Shown in pieces: positions 5,523 to 39,168 of a stretch of DNA of 39,306 nt. Source of the DNA: an uncultured Gammaproteobacteria bacterium (GTDB lineage: Bacteria; Patescibacteriota; Microgenomatia; Levybacterales; UBA12049); NCBI GenBank assembly GCA_964461865.1, contig CAYWVK010000002.1, forward strand, positions 1 through 39,306, given 5' to 3'. A program made the position numbers and the translations under genes. The stretch's first letter is position 1. Each line of letters begins with the position of its first letter. Under the pieces are notes generated by a model. That model did not search any database. It was not told the origin of the DNA and was given only the letters and a program-made list of their open reading frames with translations.

Positions 5523-5542
5523 AGTATAGTGGAGTTTAATAA

Positions 5543-5642: not shown

Positions 5643-5653
5643 TGAAACTTGTT

Positions 5654-5788: not shown

Positions 5789-5794
5789 TAAGTA

Positions 5795-6329: not shown

Positions 6330-6338
6330 TAAGAAAAT

Positions 6339-7578: not shown

Positions 7579-7580
7579 AT

Positions 7581-24668: not shown

Positions 24669-24740
24669 TCCCCTGTAGCTCAACGGTAGAGCAGGAAGCT
24701 GTTAACTTCAAGGTTCGAGGTTCGAATCCTCGCGGGGGAG
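24669..24740 (+). tRNA. tRNA-Asn (anticodon GTT)
   Basis: 72-nt cloverleaf read by hand. Acceptor TCCCCTG/CGGGGGA (one G-U), D arm GCTC-AACGGTA-GAGC, anticodon loop CTGTTAA, T arm CGAGG-TTCGAAT-CCTCG, discriminator G. CCA not encoded. Confidence 0.9.
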
Positions 24741-24790
24741 CAAGCTAGTGCATGGTCAACTGACCGAGGTCTCTATTTAGCCTATCAAGG
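24741..24790 (+). repeat. Left direct repeat (DR-L) of the island, immediately 3' of tRNA-Asn
   Basis: CAAGCTAGTGCATGGTCAACTGACCGAGGTCTCTATTTAGCCTATCAAGG. The 32-nt core 24759-24790 matches 38899-38930 at 30/32 positions, preceded by a looser AAG(C)TAGTGCA block. Confidence 0.75.
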
Positions 24791-24813
24791 CTTTCTAAAG
24801 ACCTCATTTTTTT
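24766..24813 (+). terminator. Putative intrinsic terminator after tRNA-Asn
   Basis: GAGGTCT (24766-24772) pairs with AGACCTC (24799-24805), with inner AGCCT/AGGCT pairing, followed by a 7-T run (24807-13). The loop is large, so confidence is moderate. Confidence 0.45.
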
Positions 24814-25296
24814 GTCAAACTCTCGGACCGGATTTTACGCTCAAATGCCACCCAGTGCCAGGATTCGGTCTGTAGTCTCACGCATTGACATTAAAAATTT
24901 AAAAGAATAAAATCCTGATGCATAGCCTGTCCAAAATAGGCTTTATGGATATAAGTAAATTTTTAGATTTTAAAGAAAAACGGCAATTAATAAAAGATAT
25001 TGTCATTTAGTTTGTCTCTGGCTTTGCCCTTCTTTTTTTAGGTAAGTTGCTTGAAAATTTGCTGGGAAAACAGTTAAACCTAGTCTCTCGATATATTATT
25101 ACTCCTCCAGACGCTGTCTCAGTCGCTGCCTTTTTCTTACTGCTAGTCTTATTTTTTGTTCCAATCTTTTTTTCTTTTCTTCGAAATAATCTTTTTTCAT
25201 ACCCTTGAATTCAAGTTTTATCCAAGCGTATTGTATATAATTTTGCTTACCAAAGAAATATAAAATTTAATTTTTGAATTTTGTATAATACTTCCG

Positions 25297-25704
25297 ATGG
25301 ATAGAATATCAAAAGAAAAAAGAAGCTGGAACATGTCCAGAATTATGTCTGAAAATACTAAACCAGAGCTTATTATTTTTTCCGCTCTTGATAAGTTAAA
25401 TATAAAATATAAAAAACACTATAATATTTCAGGTAAGCCTGATATTGCATTTCCGAAAAATAAAATTGCGGTATTTATTAACGGTGAGTTTTGGCATGGC
25501 AGGAGATTTGCAAAAGAAAAAAATAGTTATCCAGAATTTTGGGTAAACAAAATTTCGGAAAACATAAAAAGAGACAGAAAAAACTATAAATTACTTAAAG
25601 AAAAGGGGTGGAAAATTATCAAAATTTGGGATAAGGATTTGAAAAAACACATAAATAGAGAATTCAATAAAATTATGCGGGCTATCAACATTGAAACTAT
25701 TTAG
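25297..25704 (+). CDS. vsr: Very short patch repair endonuclease
   Basis: 135 aa. SKEKRSWNMSRIMSENTKPELIIFSALDKL...KPDIAFPKNKIAVFINGEFWHG is the Vsr signature. TATAAT at 25284-25289 lies 7 nt before the ATG. Confidence 0.9.
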   Translation: MDRISKEKRSWNMSRIMSENTKPELIIFSALDKLNIKYKKHYNISGKPDIAFPKNKIAVFINGEFWHGRRFAKEKNSYPEFWVNKISENIKRDRKNYKLLKEKGWKIIKIWDKDLKKHINREFNKIMRAINIETI

Positions 25705-26803
25705 CCTGAAGGGTTTTAATTATTTGTGAGGCTATTGCCTGAATTACCGGAACGGCAACGCTGTTGCCCAGTTGTTTCATTCTCTGAGAACTGCTTACAA
25801 TCCCTTCGGGAAACTTAAAATCGTAAGGGTATCCCATAATCGCCTTTGCCTCATCAACTGAAATAGTATGCGGTTTTTTCCTTCTACTGCCGTCTTTGTC
25901 AGCTTCAAAAAACATATATGAGTCCCATGTCCTTTTGTCGTTTACCCACACTTTATTTTCGCTGACTTTGATATATGATTCGGGTGTCTTTTTACCTTTT
26001 GCAACCCAGTTCATACTTTTGTATGCCGAGCCGACACCTCCGACCCTGAGTGTTCGACCGATACGATCCGGCCATCCGTCTCTGGAAATTTCACATTTAT
26101 CCCAATTCTTATTTAAACTCTTAAAATACTTATTAAGAGTAATCCCTCCGTCATGGGTAGGTTTGGGGAATTTGAATTTAGAAGCATTAGCGACATTTGT
26201 TTCAAACGCTACCATATAGAATCTCTGCCTGTGTGTCGGCAGTCCGAAATCACTGGCTTTTAATATATTCCAAGAATCGTCTCTTTCTCTATTCACATGA
26301 TAACCGGCTTTGTCCAACTTACTCAGGATATAGTTAAACGTCCTTCCTTCGTTATGTGTCAGAATATTCCTTACATTCTCCAAAAAAACAACTTTAGGTT
26401 TCCTGGCAATTATTATCCTTTCAATATCGTTAAATAACGTCCCCCTGCTGTCTTCAAACCCGTGCTTTTTCCCGATATTGCTGAACGGTTGACACGGAAA
26501 TCCTGCGCACAATATGTCGAACTCAGGTATTATGCTTAAAATGTTCTTCTTCCAAACTGATTCGGGCAGCATAGTATCTGACAACGTAATTTCTTTAATG
26601 CTTTTCCAAAAAAACGGCTCCCTTTTTTTATCTGAAAACAGTTTTTTATCTTTTTTAACAAAATTATTTTCATAAGTTTTTCGGGCATTTGAATCAAACT
26701 CATTAACAAAAGCGCATTCCGCTCCAAGATTACTGAACGCAATATGAAATCCACCTATGCCCGCAAATAAATCGATAAAGGTGATCTTTTTCTTTGTTTT
26801 CAT
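25697..26803 (-). CDS. dcm: DNA (cytosine-5)-methyltransferase
   Basis: Motif I DLFAGIGG, motif IV GFPCQPFS, motif VI FLENVRNI, motif VIII THRQRFY, motif X GNSVAVPV. The 3' end overlaps vsr by 8 nt (convergent). Confidence 0.93.
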   Translation of the reverse strand: MKTKKKITFIDLFAGIGGFHIAFSNLGAECAFVNEFDSNARKTYENNFVKKDKKLFSDKKREPFFWKSIKEITLSDTMLPESVWKKNILSIIPEFDILCAGFPCQPFSNIGKKHGFEDSRGTLFNDIERIIIARKPKVVFLENVRNILTHNEGRTFNYILSKLDKAGYHVNRERDDSWNILKASDFGLPTHRQRFYMVAFETNVANASKFKFPKPTHDGGITLNKYFKSLNKNWDKCEISRDGWPDRIGRTLRVGGVGSAYKSMNWVAKGKKTPESYIKVSENKVWVNDKRTWDSYMFFEADKDGSRRKKPHTISVDEAKAIMGYPYDFKFPEGIVSSSQRMKQLGNSVAVPVIQAIASQIIKTLQAK

Positions 26804-26864
26804 TTAGCTATTATATACTGAAATCCTTTGAAAGTATTATTATTTAATATTATCATAAAAAATC

Positions 26865-26899
26865 ACATATTGACAATATGTAGTCATATAAGGTATAAT
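26865..26899 (+). promoter_or_regulatory. Promoter with palindromic operator for the 26910-31963 operon
   Basis: 17-nt perfect palindrome ACATATTG-A-CAATATGT (26865-26881) contains TTGACA (26870-26875). 18-nt spacer, TATAAT (26894-26899), then ATG 10 nt further. Confidence 0.45.
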
Positions 26900-26909
26900 A
26901 ACATATATT

Positions 26910-27143
26910 ATGTCAAAGAAAAAATACAATAACTCAAGAGAAAGATTTTTGGATGTTGCAGAGGCACGAACAAATGCTGTCTTAGATAGGATCAGAATTC
27001 TCGGCAATTGTTCTAATAAAAGTCTCTATAGTTATTCTCCGGATGAAATTAATAAAATTTTTAAAACCATCCAGGATGATTTAGATCATAATAAAGCAAG
27101 GTTTAAACTAGAAGAATCAAGAAAAAGAAAATTTAAGCTTTAA
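26910..27143 (+). CDS. Hypothetical small helical protein, first gene of island operon
   Basis: 77-aa ORF, basic ends, no family recognised. Followed after 2 nt by the next gene. Confidence 0.55.
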   Translation: MSKKKYNNSRERFLDVAEARTNAVLDRIRILGNCSNKSLYSYSPDEINKIFKTIQDDLDHNKARFKLEESRKRKFKL

Positions 27144-27145
27144 AA

Positions 27146-27772
27146 ATGAATAATAATCTTACAAGGTCCCAAAAAATTTTAATTGTCCTTTATAATCTTG
27201 CTGATGGTACAACAAAAAAAATACGTTTTGAAGACATAGCAGTCAGTGCATTCCAAACATATAAAGCAGACTTTCAGCTTCGAGGTTATCCTCAATATCC
27301 CGATACGGGAGACATAGTACATAAACCTCTTTACAGTGATTTAAAAAAACACGGATATATTTTATCCGGCAATAAATATTTTTCATTAACACCTAAGGGT
27401 ATCGAATATGCAAAAAAGGTATTAAATTTAAATGCAGATTCATCAAAAAAGGACGATTCATATGTTAAATTTACAATGGATCAACAGAAAGAAATAGAGC
27501 GCATAAAAGATTCGGCAGCGTTTAAACTTTTTTATGAAGGAAAACAGGAAGAAATTTTAGATATTGATTTTTATTCATATTTGGGTGTTACCGTAAGAAC
27601 AAATAAATTTGATTTTCTCGGCAGATTGGCAGCTGTTGAAGATGCAATTGAAGCCACAAAAAATAAAAGTAGACTACTGTATAAGGAACTAATAAACTGT
27701 CACGCTTTTCTTAAAAAGAAATTTAAAGATAATTTGGAATTTATAAAAAACAGTAAAGGAGGGAAAAGATGA
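27146..27772 (+). CDS. Hypothetical protein with N-terminal winged-helix-like domain
   Basis: 208 aa. The N-terminal ~95 aa (SQKILIVLYNLADGTTKKIRFEDIAV...KHGYILSGNKYFSLTPKGIEYAKKV) has a wHTH-like pattern. The stop overlaps the next start (ATGA). Confidence 0.6.
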   Translation: MNNNLTRSQKILIVLYNLADGTTKKIRFEDIAVSAFQTYKADFQLRGYPQYPDTGDIVHKPLYSDLKKHGYILSGNKYFSLTPKGIEYAKKVLNLNADSSKKDDSYVKFTMDQQKEIERIKDSAAFKLFYEGKQEEILDIDFYSYLGVTVRTNKFDFLGRLAAVEDAIEATKNKSRLLYKELINCHAFLKKKFKDNLEFIKNSKGGKR

Positions 27773-29598
27773 TAAAGCCTGATGAGATGAAAATTAATGA
27801 AGAAGCTAATGTTTATCATGATGCAACTTTGGATAATTGGGGTAACGCATTTAACTTCAGCCACGAAAAAGGATTAGCAGAATGGTTAAAAAATTCAATT
27901 GATGCTTACTTACGCATTAAGTTTGCTGATAAAGATCAGCATGTTATTTTTAGATTCGCTGAAGGAAATAGCTCCAATCCTTCAACGATTGAATGCATTG
28001 ATTTTGTCGGAATGACACACACGGATATTCAAAAGGCTGTTAAATGGTGGGGAGATCCAAATGCAGCAAGCAGAGGCTTAAACGTAAGAGTTTATGGTGG
28101 TCATGGAAACGGTGGTAAATTTTACATGCGCCAAATGTTTCGTTCTTCAAGGTTTATAACCTATAGAGACGGAAAGCTAAATATATTCGGTTTCAATGAA
28201 AATAAAAAATATGGCTTTGCAGACGGTTTTGAAGACAAATCAGTCTCCTTGGAAGACGCGCTTAAAATTGCAAATATTGATATCTCAATTATTCCCCAAA
28301 ATTTATTAGTTATAATGCAAGCTGGTAAAATAGGTTTTACTTTAGTCAGAGGTATTCAACCCAAGCGAATTGTCGGTCACGCATTGCCTGTCAATCAGCT
28401 TTGCGAGAAACTGAAATACCATCCTCAATCCAGAAGGCCTCTTAAATACTGTAACGTATCTGTTATTTATAACGGAAACTTAATATTTAAGAATCTTAGA
28501 ATGGAAGAAATTGAACCTTTAAAAGAGTTTAAGGATCCTTTTGTTTTTGAAATACCTGAATTCCTTATCGATAGCGATAATCATAATAAAAAAATTGAAC
28601 TCGCGAATAAAAAATATCAAAAAGGTCAATTAATTTTACGAACTTCTTCATTGCCTTTCGGTCGCGGAGGAAGAAAGCCAGAGTTAAATTGCGTGGATAT
28701 TATTGGAGAAATAGGTGTTATTGCTTCATATAAGATGAGCGAAATAGGTCCGTTAAGATATTATCCTCAGGCACAATCAATATATGGAGAATGCAAATGC
28801 CCGATTTTAGAAGATCCTGAATATGATTCTGTTCAAAACGACAGAGATAAGTTGGCTGAAAATGATAGAACACTGGTTTTACGCAAATGGATAGCCAGTA
28901 AAATCGATGAGGTAGGGTTTAAGATAGCGGATTTGGAAGAAAAAGAGGAGCAGAAAAAAATTAATCAGACAACGGATGAATTCAATCAAATGTTAAATAA
29001 GTGGAAGGATCAATTTATGTCCAAATTGTTTACGGAGATATTGGGCGGTCCCGGAAAGGGCAGATCTACGGGTGGAATCGGAGATGAAGGTTCAGGAGGA
29101 GGAAAAAATGAAAATTCAGAGACTAAAGGAGGATTGGGTTCTGGAAAAGGAGAAGGAGGAGGAGAGGGGGATGAAAAGAAAAAAGGATCTGCGATGCCGA
29201 GGGTTTTACTATCCGAAAGTGAGGATCCTGATTTTCCAGGCGTAATTGTGACATTCGCAGAAAGACATTTTGCTGTTGAACAAAGACCGCAGGATGTATC
29301 AAGGGGTATATTTTGGATAAATCGTAATAAACCCATGGCTAAAAAGATACTTGATAAATACGGTGTTGATTCAGTTCAATGGAGAAATTACCTCTTTCAG
29401 AGATACGTAGACATTTTTATAATTTCCGCCATAGATAGAAAGGCTAAGTTAGAAGGCGGAAGTTTAACACCCGATATAATTGATACTGAAATCTTTAAAG
29501 TCGTCTCAGTAGTTAACGACAAAGCAATTGTTGATTTGGAGCAATTTTTAGTAGGAGAAAAATTTAAAACTACTAACAGCTCTGAAAATGAAGAATAA
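27769..29598 (+). CDS. GHKL/MORC-type (HATPase_c_3-like) ATPase with Gly-rich linker and unknown C-terminal domain
   Basis: Bergerat-fold motifs: N-box AEWLKNSIDAY (ExxxNxxDA), degenerate G1 IDFVGMT, and G2 box GGHGNGGK (GxxGxGxK). A low-complexity GGPGKGRSTGGIGDEGSGGGKNENSETKGGLGSGKGEGGGEGD linker precedes the last ~150 aa. Confidence 0.7.
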   Translation: MIKPDEMKINEEANVYHDATLDNWGNAFNFSHEKGLAEWLKNSIDAYLRIKFADKDQHVIFRFAEGNSSNPSTIECIDFVGMTHTDIQKAVKWWGDPNAASRGLNVRVYGGHGNGGKFYMRQMFRSSRFITYRDGKLNIFGFNENKKYGFADGFEDKSVSLEDALKIANIDISIIPQNLLVIMQAGKIGFTLVRGIQPKRIVGHALPVNQLCEKLKYHPQSRRPLKYCNVSVIYNGNLIFKNLRMEEIEPLKEFKDPFVFEIPEFLIDSDNHNKKIELANKKYQKGQLILRTSSLPFGRGGRKPELNCVDIIGEIGVIASYKMSEIGPLRYYPQAQSIYGECKCPILEDPEYDSVQNDRDKLAENDRTLVLRKWIASKIDEVGFKIADLEEKEEQKKINQTTDEFNQMLNKWKDQFMSKLFTEILGGPGKGRSTGGIGDEGSGGGKNENSETKGGLGSGKGEGGGEGDEKKKGSAMPRVLLSESEDPDFPGVIVTFAERHFAVEQRPQDVSRGIFWINRNKPMAKKILDKYGVDSVQWRNYLFQRYVDIFIISAIDRKAKLEGGSLTPDIIDTEIFKVVSVVNDKAIVDLEQFLVGEKFKTTNSSENEE

Positions 29599-31540
29599 TC
29601 CGATTACAAATTTGGTTAACTTATTTTTTAACCAATCCCCAAAAGAAACAAACACAAATAATAATATGAAAAGCATAATGACCGATGATAAATATTATTC
29701 AGAAAATGATCCCATTGAGGTTCTTTCATTAAATTCCCAGATAGAATTTATATTGAAGGGAAGAAAAATAGATACAGTGGGTAAATTATATAAATGCAAA
29801 AGAAAAAGATTAAATAAAATAAAATTTATCGGTCCAAAATCCCTTAAATATTTAATGCGAGTTAAAAGAGAGATCCATATTAATAAATTAGATTCGGATG
29901 ATAACGGTCAAAAACAACATTTGAACGAAAATGATAAGTTATCTAAACAAGAGAAAACATCTCAAAATTTATCTTATATAGACTTAAGCAACATAGATTT
30001 ACTCCCATCAATTTCCAGAGATGATGACATCAGTGCCTTGGGATTACCAACCAGACTGGAAAATAGCTTGCGAAACGTAGCCTTATTCACCATAGGAGAT
30101 TTTTATGATTACAACGACGAAGCATTATTTAAAGTCAGAAATATAGGTTATAAAACGTATCCTTATTTATTAAAAATTAAAAAAGAATTAGAATCAAAGT
30201 TTGATTTAAAAGCTCCTGAAAAACCAGAGAGGGAAGACAAAAATAAAGATAAATTGAGAGATGATAATCCTGAAGAAACATTAGAAAAACTTCTAAATAA
30301 AGTTAATTTGTCTGGGGGCGATCCGATAGAAACACTCGGTTTGCCAACAAGAGTGGAGAATGCCTTAAAAGCTGCAGGAATAAAAACTCTTAATTTATTA
30401 TTCTCGTTATCAGATAAAGAAATAATTGAAGGTAAAAACTTAGGATATAAGTCTCTTGAATTAATTAAGTATTACAAAAATTCAATTGAGAAAGGAGTTG
30501 TTTCGGGTATTAACGACGAAGAGTTAGTCGATTTAACTCTTAACAGATGTAGGGATGATAGAGACAAGACAATAATAATAAAAAGATACGGTTTTTATAC
30601 GGGTGAGAGAGATACTCTTGAGGAAATAGGGAAAAGCTTAAATATAACCAGAGAAAGAGTGAGGCAAATTCAAAATAAAATGCTATCCAGAATGAGACAT
30701 CCTAGCACGAAGTCACGCGAGCGTTTAAAAGAATTAATGATTAAGGCCTGTTTTGATAATGGCGGAATGATAACGGACAGAGAAGCGGATAAATTAATTC
30801 CGCCTCTGATTAGAAATTCTTCGATTGACGGAAGTTCTTTTCTTGATCTTCTCGCTGATATAGGATGGATTCAAAAACATGGAGCTGGTGATGTATTTTT
30901 CTATTCACCGAATAGCACAGACTATGTATTGTCAGAACTAATGGAAAAGATTATATCCGTCCTTAAAGTAGCAAAACAATTATTAAGCTTAGATGAAGTT
31001 TTAGAGCGGTTATATTATACGGGTGATAAGAATTCAATAATGCGAGACATTGTGGCTAAGTGTTGTGTTTCCGATCCTAGAATCGAGCAGGCGGGAGAAA
31101 AATACACTCTATACTCGATTCCAGGTCATAAGCAAGATAAATGGGCTCATTATATGTCTAAAGTACTAGAGCAATCAGGCGAGCCCTTGCACTTTACAGA
31201 AATAGCAGGAAGAGTTAATGATCTAATAAGTAGCTCAGATCAGAAGATTGAACAAAGAAGAGTCCACGCAATTTTAATACAGAATCACCAGTTTGCGCAT
31301 ACGGGAACATGGGGTATGTATGGATTGACTAAATGGGGACTTAGAAAGGAATCTACGTTGGATCTCGCAGAAGAATATATAAAAAAAGCAGGCTTCCCAG
31401 TTCATTTGGATCAAATTTATAATTATGTAAGTAAATATAAATATACTAAGCCCAATAACATTGCGAGTATTCTAAATAACGACAGATTTATAAAGATGGA
31501 AAGAGGCATGTATTGGCTAAAGAATGTAAAAACAAATTAA
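29588..31540 (+). CDS. Chimeric protein: three RpoA-CTD-like HhH modules + sigma-70 region 4 + two or three HARE-HTH-like modules
   Basis: Alpha-CTD-like: ALGLPTRLENSLRNVALFTIGDF...VRNIGYKTYPYL; LGLPTRVENALKAAGIKTLNLL...GKNLGYKSLELIK; weaker LSLNSQIEFILKGRKIDTVGKL...IKFIGPKSLKYL. Region 4: KRYGFYTGERDTLEEIGKSLNITRERVRQIQNKMLSRMRHP (compare this window's Rpo[42 protein letters not shown]). HARE-HTH-like: VLEQSGEPLHFTEIAGRV...HQFAHTGTWGMYGLTKWG and IKKAGFPVHLDQIYNYV...NNDRFIKMERGMYWL. Overlaps the upstream gene by 11 nt. Confidence 0.7.
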   Translation: MKNNPITNLVNLFFNQSPKETNTNNNMKSIMTDDKYYSENDPIEVLSLNSQIEFILKGRKIDTVGKLYKCKRKRLNKIKFIGPKSLKYLMRVKREIHINKLDSDDNGQKQHLNENDKLSKQEKTSQNLSYIDLSNIDLLPSISRDDDISALGLPTRLENSLRNVALFTIGDFYDYNDEALFKVRNIGYKTYPYLLKIKKELESKFDLKAPEKPEREDKNKDKLRDDNPEETLEKLLNKVNLSGGDPIETLGLPTRVENALKAAGIKTLNLLFSLSDKEIIEGKNLGYKSLELIKYYKNSIEKGVVSGINDEELVDLTLNRCRDDRDKTIIIKRYGFYTGERDTLEEIGKSLNITRERVRQIQNKMLSRMRHPSTKSRERLKELMIKACFDNGGMITDREADKLIPPLIRNSSIDGSSFLDLLADIGWIQKHGAGDVFFYSPNSTDYVLSELMEKIISVLKVAKQLLSLDEVLERLYYTGDKNSIMRDIVAKCCVSDPRIEQAGEKYTLYSIPGHKQDKWAHYMSKVLEQSGEPLHFTEIAGRVNDLISSSDQKIEQRRVHAILIQNHQFAHTGTWGMYGLTKWGLRKESTLDLAEEYIKKAGFPVHLDQIYNYVSKYKYTKPNNIASILNNDRFIKMERGMYWLKNVKTN

Positions 31541-31597
31541 ATAAAAGCATCCAAAATTTAATAAACATGATGAATAACGACTGGAGGTGAAAACACG

Positions 31598-31963
31598 ATG
31601 ACAATAGATTTTTTTAAAATAATAGAGTTAATAAAGGACCCGGATCTTAGAATGAAAATAACGCAACTCTATGGAGAAAATATTACGTTAAAAGAAGAAA
31701 ATTCTAAATTAAGACAGAAAATAGAAAAGTTTAATAAAAATGAAGAAATAAGAAGTAAATTGCAACATAAAGACAATCATTATCTCATTGAAGAAGACGG
31801 ACCTTTTTGTACTAAATGCTGGGATGTTGATGAAAAACTAGTAAGGCTCCATGGAAACGCTTCTGATGAAGGAGTACAGCATTTTACTTGTCCAAACTGC
31901 AAAACGTACACTCAAATAGGAGAATATCCAAGAACTCGCGTAGAAGACATTAATCTGTATTGA
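31598..31963 (+). CDS. Coiled-coil + zinc-ribbon protein, last gene of island operon
   Basis: 121 aa. GGAGGTGA SD upstream. N-terminal heptad-like region, then CTKCW...CPNC four-Cys ribbon. Confidence 0.6.
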   Translation: MTIDFFKIIELIKDPDLRMKITQLYGENITLKEENSKLRQKIEKFNKNEEIRSKLQHKDNHYLIEEDGPFCTKCWDVDEKLVRLHGNASDEGVQHFTCPNCKTYTQIGEYPRTRVEDINLY

Positions 31964-31994
31964 TTATTAATCCTCTAGTCGTATAATCAGCTTA

Positions 31995-33320
31995 ATGGAA
32001 AAAACCCGCCTAAATAAGTCAGTTAATTATAAAGCGGTTATAATAGTTTTAATTCTTTACTACTTTATCAGACCTTATTCCTCTGACGCTTTTACCCCTT
32101 TTTTATCGGACTTATTATTTCTAATAATTATTTTAAAAATGTTCAAGGTAAATCTTAACTTAAAAAAATTAGTTTTTTTGTTTTTTACTTTCCTTGAACT
32201 ATTGGTAACTTATGTAATAAGACAAAGAAAGTATTCTGTACCGCTTGGGATCTGTATTATTCTTGTTTTTTTTATTTTTTATCAAAACAGTGAAATTAAT
32301 AAAATAAACAACAAGCTTGTTTTGATTGAAAATAAGCTAGGGGGTAATAAAGAAATTAATTGTAATATCAATGAATCAGTTAAGAAAATAAAACAATCGG
32401 TAGTCAGAGTAGTTGGAGGGGAAGCGGAAGGATCGGGTTTTGCAGTAACTTACGATGGTTTAATAATTACCAATTTTCATGTTATAGAATTTGAACCAAG
32501 TCCTAAAATTGTCTTTTCCGACAATACATTTGAAACAGCAACTATAGAGATGGCTGACAAGCAAGCAGATTTGGCTGTATTAAGAGTTGAGAGAAAATTG
32601 CCCATGATTAACTTCGGTTACTATCTGGACTTAACCCCAACCCAGGATCTTTACGCGATAGGATATCCGTTAGGTGGAGATATTCCCGGGGACGCAACTA
32701 TAAGTAAGGGAATATTATCAGCAATAAGAGAACCCAAAGATTCAGGTTTAACAATTCTTCAAACTGATATTGATTTAAATCAGGGTGTTTCAGGAGGTCC
32801 GATGATTGATACTTGCGGAGACGTATATGGAATAAATACTGCCGGAATGTCCGGCATGGGATGGGCAATTTCATCCGATACTATTTTACAAAAATTAAAC
32901 AAGATGTCACTGGATGAGGATCCCTTAAAAGATGTTAAAAAAATAACTATTGATCCGGATTTAAGCCCAACGGAAGCAGTTAAGGCTTTTTATAATTATT
33001 TAAAACTTAGAAAACTACCCGAAGCATTTAGTCTTTTATCGGATAATTTTAAAGAAGGACATGGTTATGATTATTGGAAAAAAGGCTACGAAACAATGCT
33101 TGATACAAGTATTATCAGTTCTTCTCAGGATGGAGCAGTAAACTCAGGTAAAAATATCGTAAAAGTTAAATTAACAACAACAAATTTAGTAGATGGTGAA
33201 TTTGTTTATAAGGCGTTTGAGGGAACATGGGAAGTAAGAGAACTAAAAGGAATGTGGCAGCTTTGGGAAGCTAATGTAAAAGAAGTTAAAAATCCGGATT
33301 ATTTCTGGTTTTATGAATGA
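31995..33320 (+). CDS. Membrane-anchored trypsin-like (S1C/Trypsin_2-like) serine protease with C-terminal NTF2-like domain
   Basis: 441 aa. Three N-terminal TM helices. Catalytic triad contexts GSGFAVTYDGLIITNFHVI (His), ADLAVLRV (Asp), GVSGGPMID (Ser). Confidence 0.75.
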   Translation: MEKTRLNKSVNYKAVIIVLILYYFIRPYSSDAFTPFLSDLLFLIIILKMFKVNLNLKKLVFLFFTFLELLVTYVIRQRKYSVPLGICIILVFFIFYQNSEINKINNKLVLIENKLGGNKEINCNINESVKKIKQSVVRVVGGEAEGSGFAVTYDGLIITNFHVIEFEPSPKIVFSDNTFETATIEMADKQADLAVLRVERKLPMINFGYYLDLTPTQDLYAIGYPLGGDIPGDATISKGILSAIREPKDSGLTILQTDIDLNQGVSGGPMIDTCGDVYGINTAGMSGMGWAISSDTILQKLNKMSLDEDPLKDVKKITIDPDLSPTEAVKAFYNYLKLRKLPEAFSLLSDNFKEGHGYDYWKKGYETMLDTSIISSSQDGAVNSGKNIVKVKLTTTNLVDGEFVYKAFEGTWEVRELKGMWQLWEANVKEVKNPDYFWFYE

Positions 33321-33918
33321 TAAGTCGCTTCGAAAATTAGCAATTAAAACAGGAGATAAAATAACAAGGGAAATCTTTTTAAACAAAAGAAAAAGAAAGA
33401 AACACAAAGAACTCTTCCTAATTGCCCAGAAATATGTTCTTAAAAATGCAGATTTTTCAGTTAAGCCTGTCTTAAAACAGGAATACGAAGAAAGGATGCT
33501 TCATACATCAATACTAAGCTTTAGCGTAAAAGGGTTGGAGATGGTAAAAAATGCAGAACAACGAGATAAAGAAACACATCTTACTAATTGTAAATTTGTT
33601 CTTTTTAAAAAAGGAAAATCATTAGTATTTAAATCAACATTTCTAAAACCCCTTTTGGATAATAAAAAAAGAACAAGTTATTTTTATTTTCCGCATGGCT
33701 TTCCAAAGAATACAAAAAAGAAAGCTTATATTTACAAAGGAATAGATAAATTTAAAAGTAAGGAATACAGGAATGTTGACAAGGGAATTTTCAAACAGAA
33801 AATATTGGATTTTAAAACATTCACCATAAAACATAAGGGAGAAAAAGAAGATTATAATTTTAAATTAACCATTCTTAATAAAGAGAAACAATCATACTGG
33901 GCAGAAAATTATGAGTAA
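33313..33918 (+). CDS. Hypothetical basic protein
   Basis: 201 aa, Lys-rich, overlaps the protease gene by 8 nt (translational coupling). No family recognised. Confidence 0.5.
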   Translation: MNDKSLRKLAIKTGDKITREIFLNKRKRKKHKELFLIAQKYVLKNADFSVKPVLKQEYEERMLHTSILSFSVKGLEMVKNAEQRDKETHLTNCKFVLFKKGKSLVFKSTFLKPLLDNKKRTSYFYFPHGFPKNTKKKAYIYKGIDKFKSKEYRNVDKGIFKQKILDFKTFTIKHKGEKEDYNFKLTILNKEKQSYWAENYE

Positions 33919-34046
33919 AAATAAAAATGAAGAAATAATAAAAAAGAGATAGAAGAAGACTAAAAAGATAAAGATGTTTATATTTTGGAGAATGAAGGAG
34001 TGATTAAAATTTTAATATCAAGAGAGTAAAATATAAAAGATACGAA

Positions 34047-34484
34047 ATGCTTATAAGTAAAAAATTATTAATTTTAGAAGATGATTTTTTGACAGTCTCG
34101 AAGATTTTAGATAGGCTAGAAAGTTTTGAGCAAATTGAGCCATATGACTTCAGTATCGTAGTATTGTCTGATTATATTCAGGTCCAAGATTATATCAACA
34201 ATAATCCTAAGGCAGAATTTGATGTAATTCTTTTAGATCGGGATTGTAAGATGGGAGGGTCATTTCACGTTTTAGACATTGAGAGATTCGGGCCCGAGAA
34301 GGTAATATCCATCTCTTCGGTTCCAAAAAATAACGAGGCCGCTAAGAAAAGAGGAGTAAAAAAGGTTGTAGAAAAGGACTTTCTTAATTTAGACGAGTTT
34401 GCAGACAAGGTAATCTTAGAAATAGAAAAAATGGTAAAAGGAAAAAATTTAAATAGATTAAAAAATATATTTAAAAAATTGTAA
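34047..34484 (+). CDS. Orphan CheY-like receiver (REC)-like domain protein
   Basis: 145 aa. LLILEDD (acidic pair), VILLDRD (phospho-acceptor-like Asp), ISISS and a downstream Lys in receiver-like spacing. No output domain, no kinase nearby. Confidence 0.5.
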   Translation: MLISKKLLILEDDFLTVSKILDRLESFEQIEPYDFSIVVLSDYIQVQDYINNNPKAEFDVILLDRDCKMGGSFHVLDIERFGPEKVISISSVPKNNEAAKKRGVKKVVEKDFLNLDEFADKVILEIEKMVKGKNLNRLKNIFKKL

Positions 34485-34542
34485 TTGCCTAAAACGGATA
34501 CTTAGGGAATATATTGATGTTTAGTAAGCCCTTCATCGTTAC

Positions 34543-34758
34543 ATGAGTAAAATAAGTCAAGAATGCGAAAACTATGGTAAATATTTAGGAACAGGAAATT
34601 ACCATTTGTGCACTCGTTGTGAAAATGGTTCAGAAAATGGCTGTGGTAACTTAAAGATAAAAGGTCAAAGATTCAGTGAATGGATAGCCAAATGTCCTGT
34701 TGGAGATACCCTCTATGTTTTTCATCAAAGATCGGAAAGAGTTAATAAAGAAAAATAA
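34543..34758 (+). CDS. Small Cys-rich protein, paralogue 1
   Basis: 71 aa with five Cys. 50/69 aligned residues are identical to 37229-37438 by hand alignment. The stop is immediately followed by repeat R1. Confidence 0.6.
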   Translation: MSKISQECENYGKYLGTGNYHLCTRCENGSENGCGNLKIKGQRFSEWIAKCPVGDTLYVFHQRSERVNKEK

Positions 34759-34796
34759 GTTCCAACATCATTCATTCCGTGGAGCAAATTAGCCTC
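34759..34796 (+). repeat. Cassette-end repeat R1
   Basis: GTTCCAACATCATTCATTCCGTGGAGCAAATTAGCCTC, starting at the first nt after the TAA stop. Confidence 0.7.
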
Positions 34797-34821
34797 AAAA
34801 ACTTAATATTTCTATTACCTT

Positions 34822-34830
34822 TGCTATACT
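34822..34830 (+). promoter_or_regulatory. Extended -10 element for cassette gene 34840
   Basis: TGCTATACT (identical to the rpmH element) 9 nt upstream of GTG 34840. Confidence 0.35.
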
Positions 34831-34839
34831 AATTTTATT

Positions 34840-35289
34840 GTGAAGAAATTTTATATTGTAATTATTTTATTTTTAGCTGTTATTTCATTTTATTTCCTTC
34901 CTGGAATTTTTAATATACCAAGAATGATTGAATGCGTTTCAAATAGCGAGTCTTTTCTCCTTACGCCGTGTGATCCCTTTAACAGTTGGTTTCTTTGCAG
35001 AAGACATGCTTATTGTACGATTTCATATAAAGATGGAGGAAAGGGATGTAACTCTGGGAGTAAATGTTCCTCTGGTATATGCGTGTTTAAAAAAGAGGAC
35101 ATTGTAAGGTTTAACAAAAAATTAATTGATGAGATATGGAGTATGCCAATGTTAACAGGTGAGAAAAGATTACAATTGCCCGATAATTTTGGTTTTTGTA
35201 AAAAGTACGAAAATGACCAAAATTGCATATCTCGTAAATATGTTGAAATTAACTATGATCAAAAAATAGTGGATGTTGGATGTATGTAA
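34840..35289 (+). CDS. Secreted/anchored cysteine-rich protein
   Basis: 149 aa, GTG start, N-terminal hydrophobic helix (FYIVIILFLAVISFYFLPGIF), 10 Cys in the mature part. Followed by R2. Confidence 0.55.
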   Translation: MKKFYIVIILFLAVISFYFLPGIFNIPRMIECVSNSESFLLTPCDPFNSWFLCRRHAYCTISYKDGGKGCNSGSKCSSGICVFKKEDIVRFNKKLIDEIWSMPMLTGEKRLQLPDNFGFCKKYENDQNCISRKYVEINYDQKIVDVGCM

Positions 35290-35291
35290 TA

Positions 35292-35334
35292 GATTCTAAC
35301 ATCGCTTATTCCTCGGAGCCAAGTTTTTAGACTC
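35292..35334 (+). repeat. Cassette-end repeat R2
   Basis: GATTCTAACATCGCTTATTCCTCGGAGCCAAGTTTTTAGACTC, 3 nt after the stop. Followed by TTGACA (35338-35343), N18, TACACT. Confidence 0.7.
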
Positions 35335-35374
35335 TGGTTGACAGGACAATAATTTAATCCCTACACTAATATTA

Positions 35375-37189
35375 GTGGTAACTCAAGAATTAATTAGTTT
35401 TGTTAATCAGCAAAGACAAAATGGGGTAAAAGATGTTGATATTGAGGCAATACTTGTTAAAAATGGTTGGACACAAGCAGATGTAGCTCAGGTATTAAAT
35501 CCACAGAATATCGATCAAAATAATTTGGATAATGTAAATCAAGGACCAACGCATAAATATAAATATAATGTTTTAGTAAAAATACTAAATATACTAATTA
35601 CATTATATTTATTTATTACTGCACTTATATTTTCATTTATGGCTGTTTTATCTTTTCCAGTTTTGCTTGTTCAAAATAAGATTGGTTTTGGCTGGTATCA
35701 AACCGCAATGTTTTCTATTCTTCACATTTCTGCATTTGTAATTTTTATTGTAAGCAAAAAAAGATATTCTATAGTTCCATGGATTCTTACTGCAATTATC
35801 ACTTGGTCTATAGGAATATGGATTTATTACCGCAGCTTTGAAATAGGTAATTTAATCACTATCCTTATTTATGGAATACCGATAATATTACTTTTTATAA
35901 TAAAACACATAAAGAAAGAAGGACAGACTATTGAGCCAGAGAAGCAAGGAGACCTATCTTCGAAAACGATATTAGAAACTCAAGCTTCATCTTTACCATT
36001 TACTAATTCAGCAGTTAAACAGTCATTTTGGAAAAAAGAATCTTATATTATCCTTTTCATTCTATTGATTCAGCCATTAGGAGTATTTTTAATGTGGAAA
36101 TACACCCACTGGAGAAGGTGGGTTAAAGAGGTTATTACAGCATGGTTTGTCTTAAGTATAATTCCCACATTGTTTTTGTGGTCAACATTGGGAGTCGTTA
36201 ATGGCCTTAGTTTTTATAATGATATTTTTAATCCTAAAACAGTAAATAAATCTCAAGAATACAACTGTAACCCAATTAATACTGAATGGTCGAAATGCGT
36301 AAACATAAAATATGGATTTAGCTTTGAATATCCCAGTAAATGGAATTATGTAGATGAAGGATCAGATTATCTAGTTTTCAGTCCATACGAAAAAGCTTCA
36401 GAAAAGTGGCTTATTTCTTTTTCTTTTCATAATGATTGGGATGACGAAGCTCAGGCAAAAAGTTTTACGGATGGAATTATACCCTCGGAAAACATAGAAA
36501 AAATAAAGGTTGATGGATTATATGCCACAAGAGAGAAAACTATACTTGATGGAGATGTGCGTTTACACGCAGTTATCTTAAATAAAAAAAATACTTATCA
36601 ATTTGATACGACTTTTGACCTAAAAGGCTTTATAAAAGATACAGGACTATCAATAGGAGATGAAGAACTTGAGAAGATTTTTGATCATATGACAAATAGT
36701 TTCACAGTAGGAAATAAAACTTCAGTGGTAAGTCCGACCTCTACACCAGAACTTACTATAACTCCATCCCTGGGCTCAACCCCGACAGCAAATTGGAAAA
36801 CATACATAAATACTGATTATAGTTTTCAATTAACCTTTACAGATAAATTTGAAGGATATACCGTTAAAAAACTACCTAACCCCGATAATTCTATGGGGGC
36901 ATCCGGGTCTCCGCTGGCTGAGTATACGTTCAGCTTGCCTACTACGGATCGACAATATATTAATTATGGAAATAATCCAGCTCAAGTGTTTAATATTGCT
37001 GTTTATAGCCAAGATAAATGGGATTGGGTTACGAATCAGGGAGGTTCAAAGCCAACCATTATTATCTCTTCTAATGATAAAGTATTTACCTATTCTTTAG
37101 CTTCTCAATGGCCTTCTGATTGGGAGTTGCAAGGAGGCCAAAATAACGATGTTAAGCCCATCATTGATTCTTTTAAGTTTGTAAACTAG
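35375..37189 (+). CDS. Large polytopic membrane protein with extracytoplasmic C-terminal domains
   Basis: 604 aa, GTG start. Small soluble N-terminal module (ELISFVNQQRQNGVKDVDIEAILVKNGWTQADVAQVL), about 8 TM helices, then ~330 aa of beta-rich extracellular sequence with a Ser/Thr/Pro linker. Confidence 0.6.
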   Translation: MVTQELISFVNQQRQNGVKDVDIEAILVKNGWTQADVAQVLNPQNIDQNNLDNVNQGPTHKYKYNVLVKILNILITLYLFITALIFSFMAVLSFPVLLVQNKIGFGWYQTAMFSILHISAFVIFIVSKKRYSIVPWILTAIITWSIGIWIYYRSFEIGNLITILIYGIPIILLFIIKHIKKEGQTIEPEKQGDLSSKTILETQASSLPFTNSAVKQSFWKKESYIILFILLIQPLGVFLMWKYTHWRRWVKEVITAWFVLSIIPTLFLWSTLGVVNGLSFYNDIFNPKTVNKSQEYNCNPINTEWSKCVNIKYGFSFEYPSKWNYVDEGSDYLVFSPYEKASEKWLISFSFHNDWDDEAQAKSFTDGIIPSENIEKIKVDGLYATREKTILDGDVRLHAVILNKKNTYQFDTTFDLKGFIKDTGLSIGDEELEKIFDHMTNSFTVGNKTSVVSPTSTPELTITPSLGSTPTANWKTYINTDYSFQLTFTDKFEGYTVKKLPNPDNSMGASGSPLAEYTFSLPTTDRQYINYGNNPAQVFNIAVYSQDKWDWVTNQGGSKPTIIISSNDKVFTYSLASQWPSDWELQGGQNNDVKPIIDSFKFVN

Positions 37190-37228
37190 GTCTCCACAAG
37201 ATAGGTTTTTTTGATTAACATAGTAATT

Positions 37229-37438
37229 ATGAGTCAGATAAGCATAGAGTGCGAAAATTACGGTAAGCATTTGGGGACGGGACATTATCATATGTGCACA
37301 CGCTGTGAAAATGGTTTGGAAAATGGTTGTGCCGATTTAAAGATAAGGGGTCAAAGATTCAGTGAATGGATATCCAAGTGTCCTGTCGCTCGTGAGCTCT
37401 ATGTTTTCCAAGCTCGGGCGGAAAGAGCTAAAAGCTAA
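37229..37438 (+). CDS. Small Cys-rich protein, paralogue 2
   Basis: 69 aa from ATG 37229 (the track ORF starts at TTG 37211). MSQISIECENYGKHLGTGHYHMCTRCENG... is parallel to paralogue 1. Followed by R3. Confidence 0.6.
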   Translation: MSQISIECENYGKHLGTGHYHMCTRCENGLENGCADLKIRGQRFSEWISKCPVARELYVFQARAERAKS

Positions 37439-37443
37439 AATAA

Positions 37444-37485
37444 GTTCTAACATCGTCTATCCCTCGGAGCCATTTTTTTAGCTTC
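37444..37485 (+). repeat. Cassette-end repeat R3
   Basis: GTTCTAACATCGTCTATCCCTCGGAGCCATTTTTTTAGCTTC, 5 nt after the stop. Confidence 0.7.
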
Positions 37486-37531
37486 AGAAAATCTCTTTAA
37501 CTATATCAACCACTAGTAGGATTAGAACTTT

Positions 37532-37540
37532 TGATATAAT
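37532..37540 (+). promoter_or_regulatory. Extended -10 element for cassette gene 37547
   Basis: TGATATAAT 6 nt upstream of GTG 37547, compatible with a leaderless or near-leaderless transcript. Confidence 0.35.
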
Positions 37541-37546
37541 CTATAT

Positions 37547-37891
37547 GTGGAAGAAACAGTAAAATTAGTAGTATTTGTCCCGGAGACCCATGCAGATGTT
37601 GTTAGAAAAGCAATGGGAGAATCAGGTGCTGGTTTGATCGGAGACTACAAATTCTGTACTTTTTCAGTAAAAGGTGTTGGAAGGTTTATTCCCCTAGAAA
37701 CTGCTCATCCTGCAATCGGAGAAATAGGAAAACTAGAGCAGGTAAATGAAGAACGAATAGAAACTGTTTGTTACAAAAAAGACTTAGAGAAAATAATTAA
37801 GGCAATAAAAGATGTGCATCCTTATGAAGAGATCGCTCTTGATGTATATCCACTCGTTTTAAATCCTCACGATACTACATATAAAAAATAG
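37547..37891 (+). CDS. Stand-alone NIF3/YqfO insert-domain-like (PII-like fold) protein
   Basis: 114 aa. KLVVFVPETHADVVRKAMGESGAGLIGDYKFCTFSVKGVGRFIPLETAHPAIGEIGKLEQVNEERIE...HPYEEIALDVYPL follows the pattern I recall for the NIF3-family inserted domain. Confidence 0.6.
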   Translation: MEETVKLVVFVPETHADVVRKAMGESGAGLIGDYKFCTFSVKGVGRFIPLETAHPAIGEIGKLEQVNEERIETVCYKKDLEKIIKAIKDVHPYEEIALDVYPLVLNPHDTTYKK

Positions 37892-37919
37892 GTTCTAACA
37901 TCATCCATTCCTCGGAGCA
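37892..37919 (+). repeat. Cassette-end repeat R4
   Basis: GTTCTAACATCATCCATTCCTCGGAGCA, starting at the first nt after the TAG stop. Confidence 0.7.
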
Positions 37920-37948
37920 GCTGATATTGTTTGATATATTTTCTTTTA

Positions 37949-37970
37949 GATTAGTATTTTAATACTAATC
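37949..37970. promoter_or_regulatory. 22-nt perfect palindrome (candidate operator) upstream of 38016 gene
   Basis: GATTAGTATT-TT-AATACTAATC. 8 nt downstream lies TTGACA (37979-37984), N17, TATTAT (38002-38007), with the ATG at 38016. Confidence 0.4.
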
Positions 37971-38015
37971 AACATATATTGACATTATTAATTAATCAGA
38001 TTATTATCATTTTAA

Positions 38016-38738
38016 ATGAACGCAGAGCACTTAATGGTTCCTCCAAAGGATAAAATTGAAAAGCCAAGTCAAGAATTGCTATGGACACTTTTGGAAACAG
38101 TTCCAGGAAATCCCACTAATGCAACAATAGTGTTCTCAGGTGGCGAGGAAGGGTCAATTCCTATGGAAGCAGTGATGGGAATATATTTGCCTGGCGATGA
38201 AAAGAAATTTGCAATTAGAGTTGGTGAACTAGATAGAAGTTCAGGATTAGAAAACCATGAAGAGACCAGAGAAGCGACAGCGAGGTTTTTAACAAATAAG
38301 CCATATAAGAAGTTGACTGTATTGACGGGCTCTGATTATTCCGAGAACGGATATCTGGCTTTTAGAAGAAATCTGGATGGATTTAAGGACTTAGGTTACG
38401 AAATAACAGGAATTGATTTTGAATTTATTACCTATCATACGCCTTCTTTAAAGGAATTTTCACCTGATCGACCTGAATATCAAGAAACAGTTCATTATTC
38501 AAAGCTCGACAGAGACGTTATTTCGCTTAACCGATACAATCCTTTAGCTGGAATTAGTGAAGACGCTCTTAAAACCATGCCACGGGAATATGCTATTCAT
38601 ACGAAAATTGAAAGTTCTCGAAGAGTAGCAAGGCGGAAGGAAAGAAACAGTGAATGGTTCCAAAAATTATGGGAATTATCTGGGACTCTAACCCGAGAGG
38701 AAGTTAGAGCTCTGCTAAAAAAAGGGGATGCTCTCTGA
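38016..38738 (+). CDS. Hypothetical protein
   Basis: 240-aa ORF with normal composition and no family recognised. Appears richer in G+C than the core genes (by eye only). Confidence 0.55.
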   Translation: MNAEHLMVPPKDKIEKPSQELLWTLLETVPGNPTNATIVFSGGEEGSIPMEAVMGIYLPGDEKKFAIRVGELDRSSGLENHEETREATARFLTNKPYKKLTVLTGSDYSENGYLAFRRNLDGFKDLGYEITGIDFEFITYHTPSLKEFSPDRPEYQETVHYSKLDRDVISLNRYNPLAGISEDALKTMPREYAIHTKIESSRRVARRKERNSEWFQKLWELSGTLTREEVRALLKKGDAL

Positions 38739-38819
38739 AAAAGCTTTAGGGATCAATACGATTCAAGTCGGGCAGTTACCCCAGAAGTCATGAGATAAGT
38801 ATATGATTCTACGAAATAG

Positions 38820-38885
38820 GTTCTAACATCGTCCCCTTCAAAAACTTCAGGATTTCGCTAACGCTCAACATTCTTCGGAGCCAAG
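38820..38885 (+). repeat. Cassette-end repeat R5 (split by a 35-nt insert) merging into DR-R
   Basis: GTTCTAACATCGTCC (38820-38834), then a 35-nt insert (38835-38869), then ATTCTTCGGAGCCAAG (38870-38885), continuing as TAGTGCA... into the island direct repeat. Confidence 0.65.
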
Positions 38886-38930
38886 TAGTGCACCCATGAC
38901 TGACCGAGGTCTCTGTTTAGCCTATTAAGG
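38882..38930 (+). repeat. Right direct repeat (DR-R) of the island
   Basis: CAAGTAGTGCACCCATGACTGACCGAGGTCTCTGTTTAGCCTATTAAGG. Matches DR-L (24741-24790). Confidence 0.75.
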
Positions 38931-38934
38931 CATA

Positions 38935-39168
38935 TTAAGTTCTTTGCTGATTTACAACGTAATAGTCAATAAGCCTTCTGATCATTGCTTGATAAGAGGC
39001 ATTATGTTTTTTAGCAGAAGCCTTAAAGAAATCAAGACTAGCTTGAGTAAGCGTTAATGTAACCTTTGTTTTTTTATCAGTTAAGCTTAATTCTTCAGGA
39101 TTAGGTAAGAAATCATTAATTACCCTTGCTTCTATTGGTTCATTGCTATATTTTATTTTGTTTTTCAT
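38935..39168 (-). CDS. brnA: BrnA-family antitoxin (CopG/RHH-like)
   Basis: 77 aa from ATG 39168 (the track ORF starts at TTG 39204). MKNKIKYSNEPIE...KVTLTLTQASLDFFKASAKKHNASYQAMIRRLIDYY fits the BrnA pattern. Overlaps the upstream toxin ORF by 23 nt. Confidence 0.7.
   Translation of the reverse strand: MKNKIKYSNEPIEARVINDFLPNPEELSLTDKKTKVTLTLTQASLDFFKASAKKHNASYQAMIRRLIDYYVVNQQRT

Follow-up and report, generated by a model that had tools for sequence, protein, structure and literature searches.

Five co-oriented elements downstream of tRNA-Asn

The DNA analyzed here is the first 39,306 nucleotides (nt) of contig CAYWVK010000002.1 (GenBank assembly GCA_964461865.1; hereafter 'the window'), in which dnaA/dnaN are followed by core genes and then by dnaG, rpoD and a tRNA-Asn gene. 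RpoD homologues place the host organism in the Levybacteria. Directly 3' of the tRNA and in the same orientation, as in islands targeted to tRNA genes, two copies of a 62-nt direct repeat bracket ~14 kb of inserted DNA, with a 10-kb block first and an array of small gene units second. Each of these units is closed by a copy of a short conserved element, and this element, its relationship to tRNA-Asn and the cassette-like arrays that it delimits are the subject of this analysis. The first inserted unit, a large one, begins with the left repeat copy, while the right copy is the distal edge of the inserted region and is followed by a convergent BrnT/BrnA toxin-antitoxin pair. Coordinates of all features are collected in Table 1.

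A preliminary description of the window, made from the sequence alone, had reported five co-oriented copies of the element on the + strand, and pattern scans, repeat analysis and a profile all confirm them. The copies (R1 to R5) start at 34759, 35293, 37444, 37892 and 38820, the last being a split copy, and follow a pattern of ~33 nt, aaaTAR and then GTTCTAACATC-NTCY-ATYCC-NCGGAGC. With at most one mismatch, GTTCTAACATC has 5 matches in the 39.3-kb window against 0.53 expected (0/100 shuffles reach 5), and the right half, TTCCTCGGAGCC, matches R2-R5 at ≤2 mismatches. A repeat search of the window recovered the element as repeat families D2-D4. An nhmmer profile built from copies outside the window detects R1-R5 with E values of 4e-6 to 9e-13 and finds no further copies in the 39 kb.

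R1-R4 are unbroken 27-nt cores with AAATAR in front (TAATAG for R2), and successive elements start 534, 2151, 448 and 928 nt apart. The distance from the stop of the upstream open reading frame (ORF) to the core is 0, 3, 5, 0 and 81 nt for R1 to R5, in agreement with the earlier observation that four of the five lie 0-5 nt past a stop codon. Also as described before, R5 runs into the island repeat: its halves are 39 nt apart, and the right half (38870-38882) enters the repeat copy at 38877-38938. Compared by eye with the long and intermediate forms of the element in other loci (L060, L010 and L088; see below), the 39-nt insert opens like a long element (CAGGATTT...). Behind the 604-aa ORF, positions 37187-37220 read TAGGTCTCCACAAGATAGGTTTTTTTGATTAAC, possibly a strongly degraded sixth boundary (by eye; the profile is silent).

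The elements had been described as lacking hairpins, and folding of both strands as RNA and as single-stranded DNA (ssDNA) gave no hairpin beyond chance (z -1.3 to +0.9). An Rfam search returned tRNA matches only, with the short elements matching no family, and no intrinsic terminators were detected within the window array. Promoter-like sites are present 3' of R1, R2 and R4, and an extended -10 is present 3' of R3, in line with the earlier view that each following ORF has a -10-like element of its own.

Table 1. Positions of the array elements, flanking repeats, cassettes and associated genes. Coordinates refer to the window unless a locus label is given.
Feature	Position	Strand	Evidence and remarks
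tRNA-Asn (GTT), locus anchor	24669..24741	+	ARAGORN; Rfam tRNA 64.6 bits; downstream of dnaG-rpoD (Pfam)
Direct repeat, left copy	24737..24798	+	62 nt: last 5 nt of tRNA (GGAGC), trailer and terminator hairpin
Large proximal unit, ~10 kb	24742..34758	+	Pfam, PADLOC, NCBIfam; closed by R1; no element inside
Cys-rich ORF, 71 aa	34543-34758	+	Last ORF before R1
R1	34753..34800	+	AAATAA, GTTCCAACATCATTCATTCCGTGGAGC, then cassette-start motif AAATTAGCCTCAAAA; profile 24.9 bits
Cassette ORF, 149 aa	34840..35289	+	Cys-rich, N-terminal hydrophobic segment; promoter-like site 34803-34830
R2	35287..35334	+	TAATAG, ATTCTAACATCGCTTATTCCTCGGAGC, then CAAGTTTTTAGACTC; profile 26.3 bits
Two-ORF cassette	35375..37438	+	604-aa membrane protein 35375-37189; 69-75-aa Cys-rich protein 37211/37229-37438
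R3	37438..37485	+	AAATAA, GTTCTAACATCGTCTATCCCTCGGAGC, then CATTTTTTTAGCTTC; profile 46.4 bits
Cassette ORF, 114 aa	37547..37891	+	Same protein on Logan contig L069
R4	37886..37918	+	AAATAG, GTTCTAACATCATCCATTCCTCGGAGC, without TTAGCCTC motif behind; profile 43.9 bits
Cassette ORF, 240 aa	38016..38738	+	Promoter-like site TTGACA-17-TATTAT at 37979-38007
R5, split	38814..38882	+	Left half AAATAG, GTTCTAACATCGTCC; 39-nt insert; right half ATTCTTCGGAGCC
Direct repeat, right copy	38877..38938	+	Truncated tRNA trailer; 77% identity to 24737-24798
Large serine recombinase genes	L078:12009-13622; L079:13361-14863	-	End inside tRNA-Asn on the opposite strand

The element family in genomes and metagenomes

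Contigs from the genome and metagenome searches (Logan included) are labelled L001 onward. A first scan with the exact pattern, covering one genome per species, yielded matches in Levybacteria, Roizmanbacteria and unclassified Patescibacteria metagenome-assembled genomes, along with one contig labelled Omnitrophota and one labelled Gammaproteobacteria (561 kb). A match in Arthrobacter was attributed to chance, and those in L020, L034, L038, L045 and L046 are one unrelated sequence with few ORFs, treated as a chance family. The metagenome scan added 57 loci. A profile built from these loci gathers ~140 copies, of which ~110 are distinct, on ~60 Microgenomates contigs labelled mostly as Levybacteria, Roizmanbacteria or unclassified Patescibacteria, and it also recovers R1-R5. 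The consensus, which the preliminary description had proposed to follow into related genomes, bounds arrays on these ~60 related contigs.

The family consensus is aaaTAG and then GTTCTAACATC-gTCy-ATyCC-kCGGAGC, and in its 27-nt core 21 of the 27 positions exceed 1.4 bits across 109 copies, which come from different candidate phyla. All copies within each multi-copy locus lie on a single strand, and most are 0-16 nt past an ORF stop. The largest arrays have 7-8 units within 4-8 kb (L059, L006+L002, L064). Complete units (n = 78) have a median length of 721 bp (range 151-7830), with 78% of their coding residues on the strand of the element; 43 of the 71 unique complete units have one ORF and 17 have two. 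The motif TTAGCCTC follows GGAGC within 25 nt in 41% of junctions vs. 1.7% of controls, is present behind real tRNAs as well, and is often followed by a promoter; a -10-like hexamer is found in 79% of junctions vs. 56% of controls. Some copies (L007, L051, L044) sit between a stop codon and a true terminator and are thus transcribed.

On the 561-kb contig every pattern match falls inside one 16-kb stretch, and the motif is therefore clustered and not genome-wide. This argues against a generic repetitive extragenic palindrome (REP) or 3'-untranslated-region (UTR) motif, which the preliminary description had named as the finding that would overturn a cassette system. Classification as a REP, a miniature inverted-repeat transposable element or an intrinsic terminator was rejected on this confinement together with the lack of a fold and of any terminator-like site in the array. 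A phage or plasmid origin was also rejected, IMG/VR having no true matches and seven matches to an 18-mer being chance.

Relationship of the element to tRNA-Asn

A tRNA-Asn gene is located upstream of the array, and co-oriented with it, in seven loci (the window, L021, L025, L041, L056, L060 and L062), and the dnaG-rpoD-tRNA-Asn synteny of the window is shared by L060. L062 has the order tRNA-Asn, cassette, element, cassette, element, with one start motif behind the tRNA and behind each element; the junction between tRNA and first cassette resembles the junctions between element and next cassette. The tRNA-Asn gene of relatives ends with ...AAGGTTCTAGGTTCGAATCCTAGCCGCGGAGC, followed by aattttagcttca, and the element reads ATAGGTTCTA-ACATCGTCTAT-CCCGCGGAGC, followed by aaattagcctca. 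When the element is compared with tRNA-Asn plus trailer from relatives, its score is reached by 0/2000 shuffles for L021, 1/2000 for L060 and 4/2000 for L025.

The preliminary description had based a tRNA origin on resemblance of the 3' half of the element to the window's own tRNA-Asn end. That resemblance is at chance level, with 472/2000 shuffles scoring as well. Significance is reached only against the tRNA-Asn of relatives. The idea of tRNA-derived cassette boundaries was thus right, though not for the reason given; support for it comes from comparison with related loci, including the relatives' tRNAs and the seven linked loci. An att-like copy of the tRNA end, typical of tRNA-targeted islands, is likewise recognized via the relatives' tRNA-Asn, similarity to the window's own tRNA not being significant. 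Derivation of the elements from tRNA-Asn is well supported.

At 13 boundaries the element has a long form, comprising a 117-nt conserved block that ends with CTGGGGAGC and, ahead of it, a degenerate copy of the left half of the short element. The last 72 nt of the long form resemble tRNA-Asn with z of 2.5-4.4 in 8 of 9 comparisons, and an acceptor-like stem is kept with covariation; Rfam gives no tRNA call for the long form and no match even at E≤5. The long form in L088, next to purH and the same TTAGTGCCAGAATTT trailer, holds the place of the true tRNA in L041. L010 and the R5 element of the window are intermediates, with left half, insert and right half. The long forms look like whole decayed tRNA-Asn copies and R5 looks like a deletion intermediate, and we read the series from long through intermediate to short as stages in which a displaced tRNA-Asn copy decayed. 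The short form departs from every real tRNA-Asn in one common way, ACATCGTCTAT replacing the T-arm, and because this change is shared the short form has spread widely in its own right, as such and not by repeated decay.

A period-3 pattern within the element

Variability of the short element peaks at positions 9, 12, 15, 18 and 21, and this phase effect is kept in 29 copies that were not ascertained by the search patterns (permutation P = 0.04). Past the TAG/TAA, which closes it, the + frame reads VLTSSIPRS with synonymous changes only. On the - frame, with the same third positions, the element reads LRGIDDVRTYF, which is the frame of serine recombinase genes across the tRNA (see below). Two coding readings were rejected. 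A stop-codon readthrough tail does not fit, as the upstream ORF stops 0-44 nt away with no frame lock and 10/108 copies have CAG, which is not a stop. Nor is there a present-day ORF through the element, since no open frame of ≥100 aa ends in or passes through one; the motif occurs in just one long open frame, a 369-codon cassette ORF of L065 that has CAG in place of the stop and terminates 12 residues after the motif. A word-index protein search, which is a weak test, gave no match for either candidate peptide. The period-3 pattern may be left over from a recombinase gene that overlapped its attachment site, or may have arisen by chance.

Variation among related loci

The left cassette of L017/L053 is identical to that of L019 (100% over 120 nt) and the right cassettes differ, with the switch point between element positions 20 and 28. 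L030 and L010 have a cassette in common at 98.5% and diverge past element position ~11, while L001/L013 and L029 share the element and its right side, and not the left side. In L077, the closest relative (RpoD 97%), a different sequence is found straight behind the tRNA, where the contig ends. These differences would fit the expectation of the preliminary description that related strains differ in their cassettes, but all of them are at contig ends and may be assembly effects.

Recombinases and other mobile units at tRNA-Asn

Among the rpoD-anchored loci, two distinct islands occur at the tRNA-Asn of Levybacteria with identical RpoD; the first resembles a prophage, and the second has a type III restriction-modification system. 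Both encode a large serine recombinase of 500-537 aa on the opposite strand. Since these genes end inside tRNA-Asn, the last 11-13 residues of the enzyme are dictated by the tRNA sequence, and the corresponding codons (LPREDSNLEP) run antisense to the 3' half of tRNA-Asn. L077 appears to share this overlap (by eye, at the contig end). No arrays were found beside the large serine recombinase islands in the rpoD-anchored loci, and because the link between the two is the same site alone, the large serine recombinase is only a candidate enzyme. The larger array ORFs read as a glycosyl hydrolase, glycosyltransferases, ZnuA and GalE, with no integrases among them. For the flanks of the window contig, the recombinase search reached short Logan contigs only.

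Other insertions into tRNA-Asn were also observed. At L079:13135-13352 (also L081) the gene is split after the CTGT of the anticodon loop by an insertion of ~205 nt that resembles a small group I intron, and ARAGORN does not call the gene. At L077:11742-12096 and L088:18577-19113 a small GIY-YIG ORF (82-102 aa) separates an intact tRNA-Asn from a 5' fragment of the gene, whose D-loop has been replaced or enlarged by a GC-rich hairpin; L088 has an additional partial tRNA-Asn copy with the same 40-nt hairpin. The combination of GIY-YIG ORF and tRNA-Asn fragment looks like another mobile unit aimed at tRNA-Asn. A link between GIY-YIG genes and the arrays was considered and rejected, the genes being confined to L077 and L088/L089, outside arrays, with none in the window or in array loci L001-L066.

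Gene content of the inserted region

The proximal unit encodes Vsr (25297-25704), Dcm (25697-26803), ORFs without known family, a 650-aa protein (29588-31540) that combines two RNA polymerase alpha C-terminal domains (alpha-CTD) with sigma-70 region 4 and HARE-HTH, a trypsin-like protease (31995-33320) resembling defence-associated proteases in PADLOC, and a Cys-rich ORF; units of 4-8 kb are known from other arrays too. Behind the tRNA is a non-coding leader of ~156 nt (24759-24914) that includes the terminator hairpin. It recurs at 86.5% identity as a cassette start behind an element in L005, and may be a conserved RNA or a promoter region (Rfam gave no match).

The Cys-rich proteins at 34543-34758 and 37229-37438 are paralogues (repeat D1, 34543-34754 vs. 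37229-37440, 76%). Both have CxxC motifs and a weak match to DUF7479, and they reside in separate units with an element each; the pair looks like a cassette duplication inside the array. No family match was obtained for the 149-aa or the 114-aa ORF. A homologue of the 240-aa gene (728 nt at 77% nt identity) occupies another cassette context in the L011 array. The BrnT/BrnA pair (38935-39168, - strand, and on; L067:1278-1770) lies directly past the distal array end. As dnaN and dnaA are present (2936-5522), the array is only ~20-35 kb from the likely region of the replication origin.

Origin of the arrays

We consider the chances slightly better than even that a recombinase supplied in trans inserted the cassettes serially at the tRNA-Asn 3' end. 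Under this model, in which recombination, its crossover point, the direction of growth, the mobility of cassettes and the enzyme are what we infer, the segment from tRNA-Asn (24669), the proposed attB/attI-like end of the locus, to ~38940 would be an additive insertion hot spot and each unit a promoter-bearing gene cassette of one or two ORFs. A site on the incoming DNA would recombine site-specifically with the tRNA-Asn 3' end, crossing over in or beside CGGAGC. Each insertion would restore the tRNA end; new units would therefore enter beside the tRNA, and older ones would be pushed outward. The 3' element of each unit would be the junction left behind, with a left arm (aaaTAG GTTCTAACATC...) carried by the cassette and a right arm (...CC-N-CGGAGC) representing the displaced, decayed tRNA-Asn 3' end, directly behind which the next unit would start (AAATTAGCCTCAAA plus promoter). 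The long (~170 nt), intermediate (R5) and short (27 nt) forms would be successive deletion states of one displaced pseudo-tRNA. The recombinase would be encoded outside the array, and the sole candidates seen are the large serine recombinases of the bigger islands at tRNA-Asn in sister Levybacteria.

Several observations weigh against serial insertion. The switch between L001/L013 and L029 is at the left edge of the element and not at GGAGC, the junction polymorphisms rest on short overlaps at contig ends, and no circular cassette contigs were found. The acceptor of the window tRNA (CGGGGGA) mismatches the CCTCGGA of R1-R4. The offset from GGAGC to TTAGCCTC ranges over 0-14 nt (3 or 7-8 in most cases), more variation than a rigid recombinase site would lead one to expect. 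No recombinase domain was detected in any window ORF scanned with Pfam, in keeping with the preliminary description, which had seen no integrase there, and a motif screen with spot checks of larger ORFs revealed no recombinase in ~330 kb of array loci. Within the 10 kb covered, the large serine recombinase islands have neither short nor long elements, and IMG/VR has 0 true matches for either form.

The elements might instead be inert scars, that is, decayed attR sites from larger, integrase-bearing islands that entered serially at tRNA-Asn and later lost their integrases and most of their cargo by deletion, leaving units that do not move individually today. Islands with large serine recombinases are indeed integrated at tRNA-Asn in sister strains, the long, intermediate and short forms resemble progressive decay, and no array has a recombinase; in addition, R1 and R3 are 74% identical (by eye), which is no better than their paralogous genes (76%). 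We nevertheless regard inert scars, one of the two alternatives in the preliminary description, as less likely than the insertion of cassettes, given the conservation of the 27-nt core among candidate phyla, the uniform design of the units (promoter, one or two ORFs, element against the stop, median of 721 bp) and the ACATCGTCTAT change common to the short forms, which points to spread and not to repeated decay.

Still less credence is given to two explanations that need no recombinase. Pseudo-tRNA elements could serve as RecA homology anchors for modular exchange with transformed DNA, possibly stimulated by breaks from GIY-YIG nucleases near tRNA-Asn. This agrees with shared/unshared breakpoints at different places within the element, with the absence of a linked recombinase, and with the GIY-YIG ORFs and duplicated tRNA-Asn fragments of L077 and L088, but 27-45 nt is short for efficient homologous recombination and the array loci L001-L066, like the window, have no GIY-YIG gene. 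Alternatively or additionally, the elements could act at the RNA level as 3'-end or processing signals, providing each gene with a tRNA-like tail. Transcription of the L007, L051 and L044 copies and the covarying acceptor-like stem of the long form are consistent with such a role; the short element, however, has no structure beyond chance and no Rfam match, the long form is not tRNA-like for Rfam, and a 3'-UTR signal needs neither a strict single orientation nor linkage to a tRNA.

Comparison with known systems

The attC site of integrons, an imperfect palindrome, measures 57-141 bp, folds in single-stranded form and has R'' (RYYYAAC) and R' (GTTRRRY) boxes. A complete integron has an IntI-type tyrosine recombinase beside the first cassette, and its cassettes are mostly promoterless and expressed from the promoter Pc. 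A true integron or cluster of attC sites lacking an integrase (CALIN) is very improbable here: the dense packing and common orientation of mostly single-ORF cassettes, each with a 3' site just past the stop, recall one, but the site, at 27-45 nt, is below the attC size range, folds on neither strand, is conserved in sequence and not in structure, and has no R''/R' RYYYAAC...GTTRRRY pairing (GTTCTAAC and ATTAGCC fit the boxes partly, by eye), no IntI was found in window ORFs (Pfam) or loci (motif screen), and the cassettes bring promoters with them. None of the defining features tested is present, and the locus is not an integron. Of the cassette-like, integron-like array first proposed, the cassette-like part stands, as the same element bounds arrays in ~60 contigs, and the integron analogy falls with the missing attC hairpin, the missing IntI and the presence of promoters. 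What is shared with integrons and CALINs is a fixed entry site, small co-oriented cassettes and a recombination-site-like element against each stop, whereas the site described here is tRNA-derived.

Other systems combine small units with a recombinase supplied from elsewhere. The cis-mobilizable elements (CIMEs) related to ICESt1/ICESt3 of Streptococcus thermophilus are integrase-less, att-flanked, arrayed by site-specific accretion and mobilized in trans by the integrase of a related element; they are kb-sized remnants at the fda gene. The arrays resemble them in being made of integrase-less units with putative att-derived boundaries, for which mobilization in trans would be required here as well, and differ in having single-gene cassettes at a tRNA. 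Xer/dif sites are 28 bp long, with two inverted 11-bp arms and a 6-bp spacer, and in the Xer-dependent pdif modules of Acinetobacter plasmids 28-bp sites with inverted 11-bp arms alternate in orientation. These too are small gene modules with short conserved boundary sites and a recombinase encoded elsewhere, whereas our element has no inverted arms and is always direct. A dif-like site or inverted-repeat core was rejected for the element, its arms GTTCTAACATC and CCCTCGGAGCC not being inverted copies (by eye) and the TTAGCCTC spacing being variable.

In the additive flexible genomic islands of Alteromonas, variable numbers of cassettes accumulate at an insertion hot spot in a tRNA gene (PMC4898812). 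The arrays share the tRNA-gene hot spot and the variable number of cassettes, and differ in their mostly single-gene units (median 721 bp) in tight arrays, in a repeat that is a derived 27-nt sequence and not a plain copy of the tRNA end, and in an element that spans several candidate phyla with no integrase among the cassettes; the integrase typical of a tRNA-targeted island was found neither in the window nor in the array loci. In the tycheposon-seeded islands of Prochlorococcus, successive integrations at one tRNA push older elements inward to the island and partial tRNAs are scattered; tycheposons have their own recombinase and replication modules and measure several kb (10.1101/2020.12.28.424599). 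Serial integration at one tRNA with displacement of older units would be the likeness. Here, by contrast, the units of one or two ORFs show no domains of the tycheposon hallmarks (tyrosine or large serine recombinase, replication genes), and the partial tRNA is fixed and altered.

No description of such arrays in bacteria of the candidate phyla radiation was found in the literature, and the tiny promoter-bearing units, the shared derived element, the pseudo-tRNA long forms and the lack of an integrase set them apart from additive and tycheposon islands. Candidate-phyla-radiation bacteria have tiny genomes, few recognized mobile elements and large strain-level gene variation, for which a compact gene-collecting site at tRNA-Asn in several Microgenomates lineages would be a concrete route. 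We tentatively raise the possibility that these arrays are a functional analogue of the integron in such bacteria, in which the tRNA-Asn 3' end would be the entry site, a non-hairpin pseudo-tRNA of 27-45 bp the cassette site, and promoter-bearing single-gene cassettes would be excised and inserted one at a time by a recombinase whose gene lies at another place in the genome or in the community. That enzyme might be a large serine recombinase with a gene that overlapped the site in an ancestor, an overlap that, if true, would explain the period-3 variation too. If cassettes do move individually, the 27-nt element would be a simple marker of an accessory gene pool in metagenomes, and the arrays would be a second, independently evolved answer to the integron problem, with a tRNA-derived, sequence-specific site in place of a folded attC.

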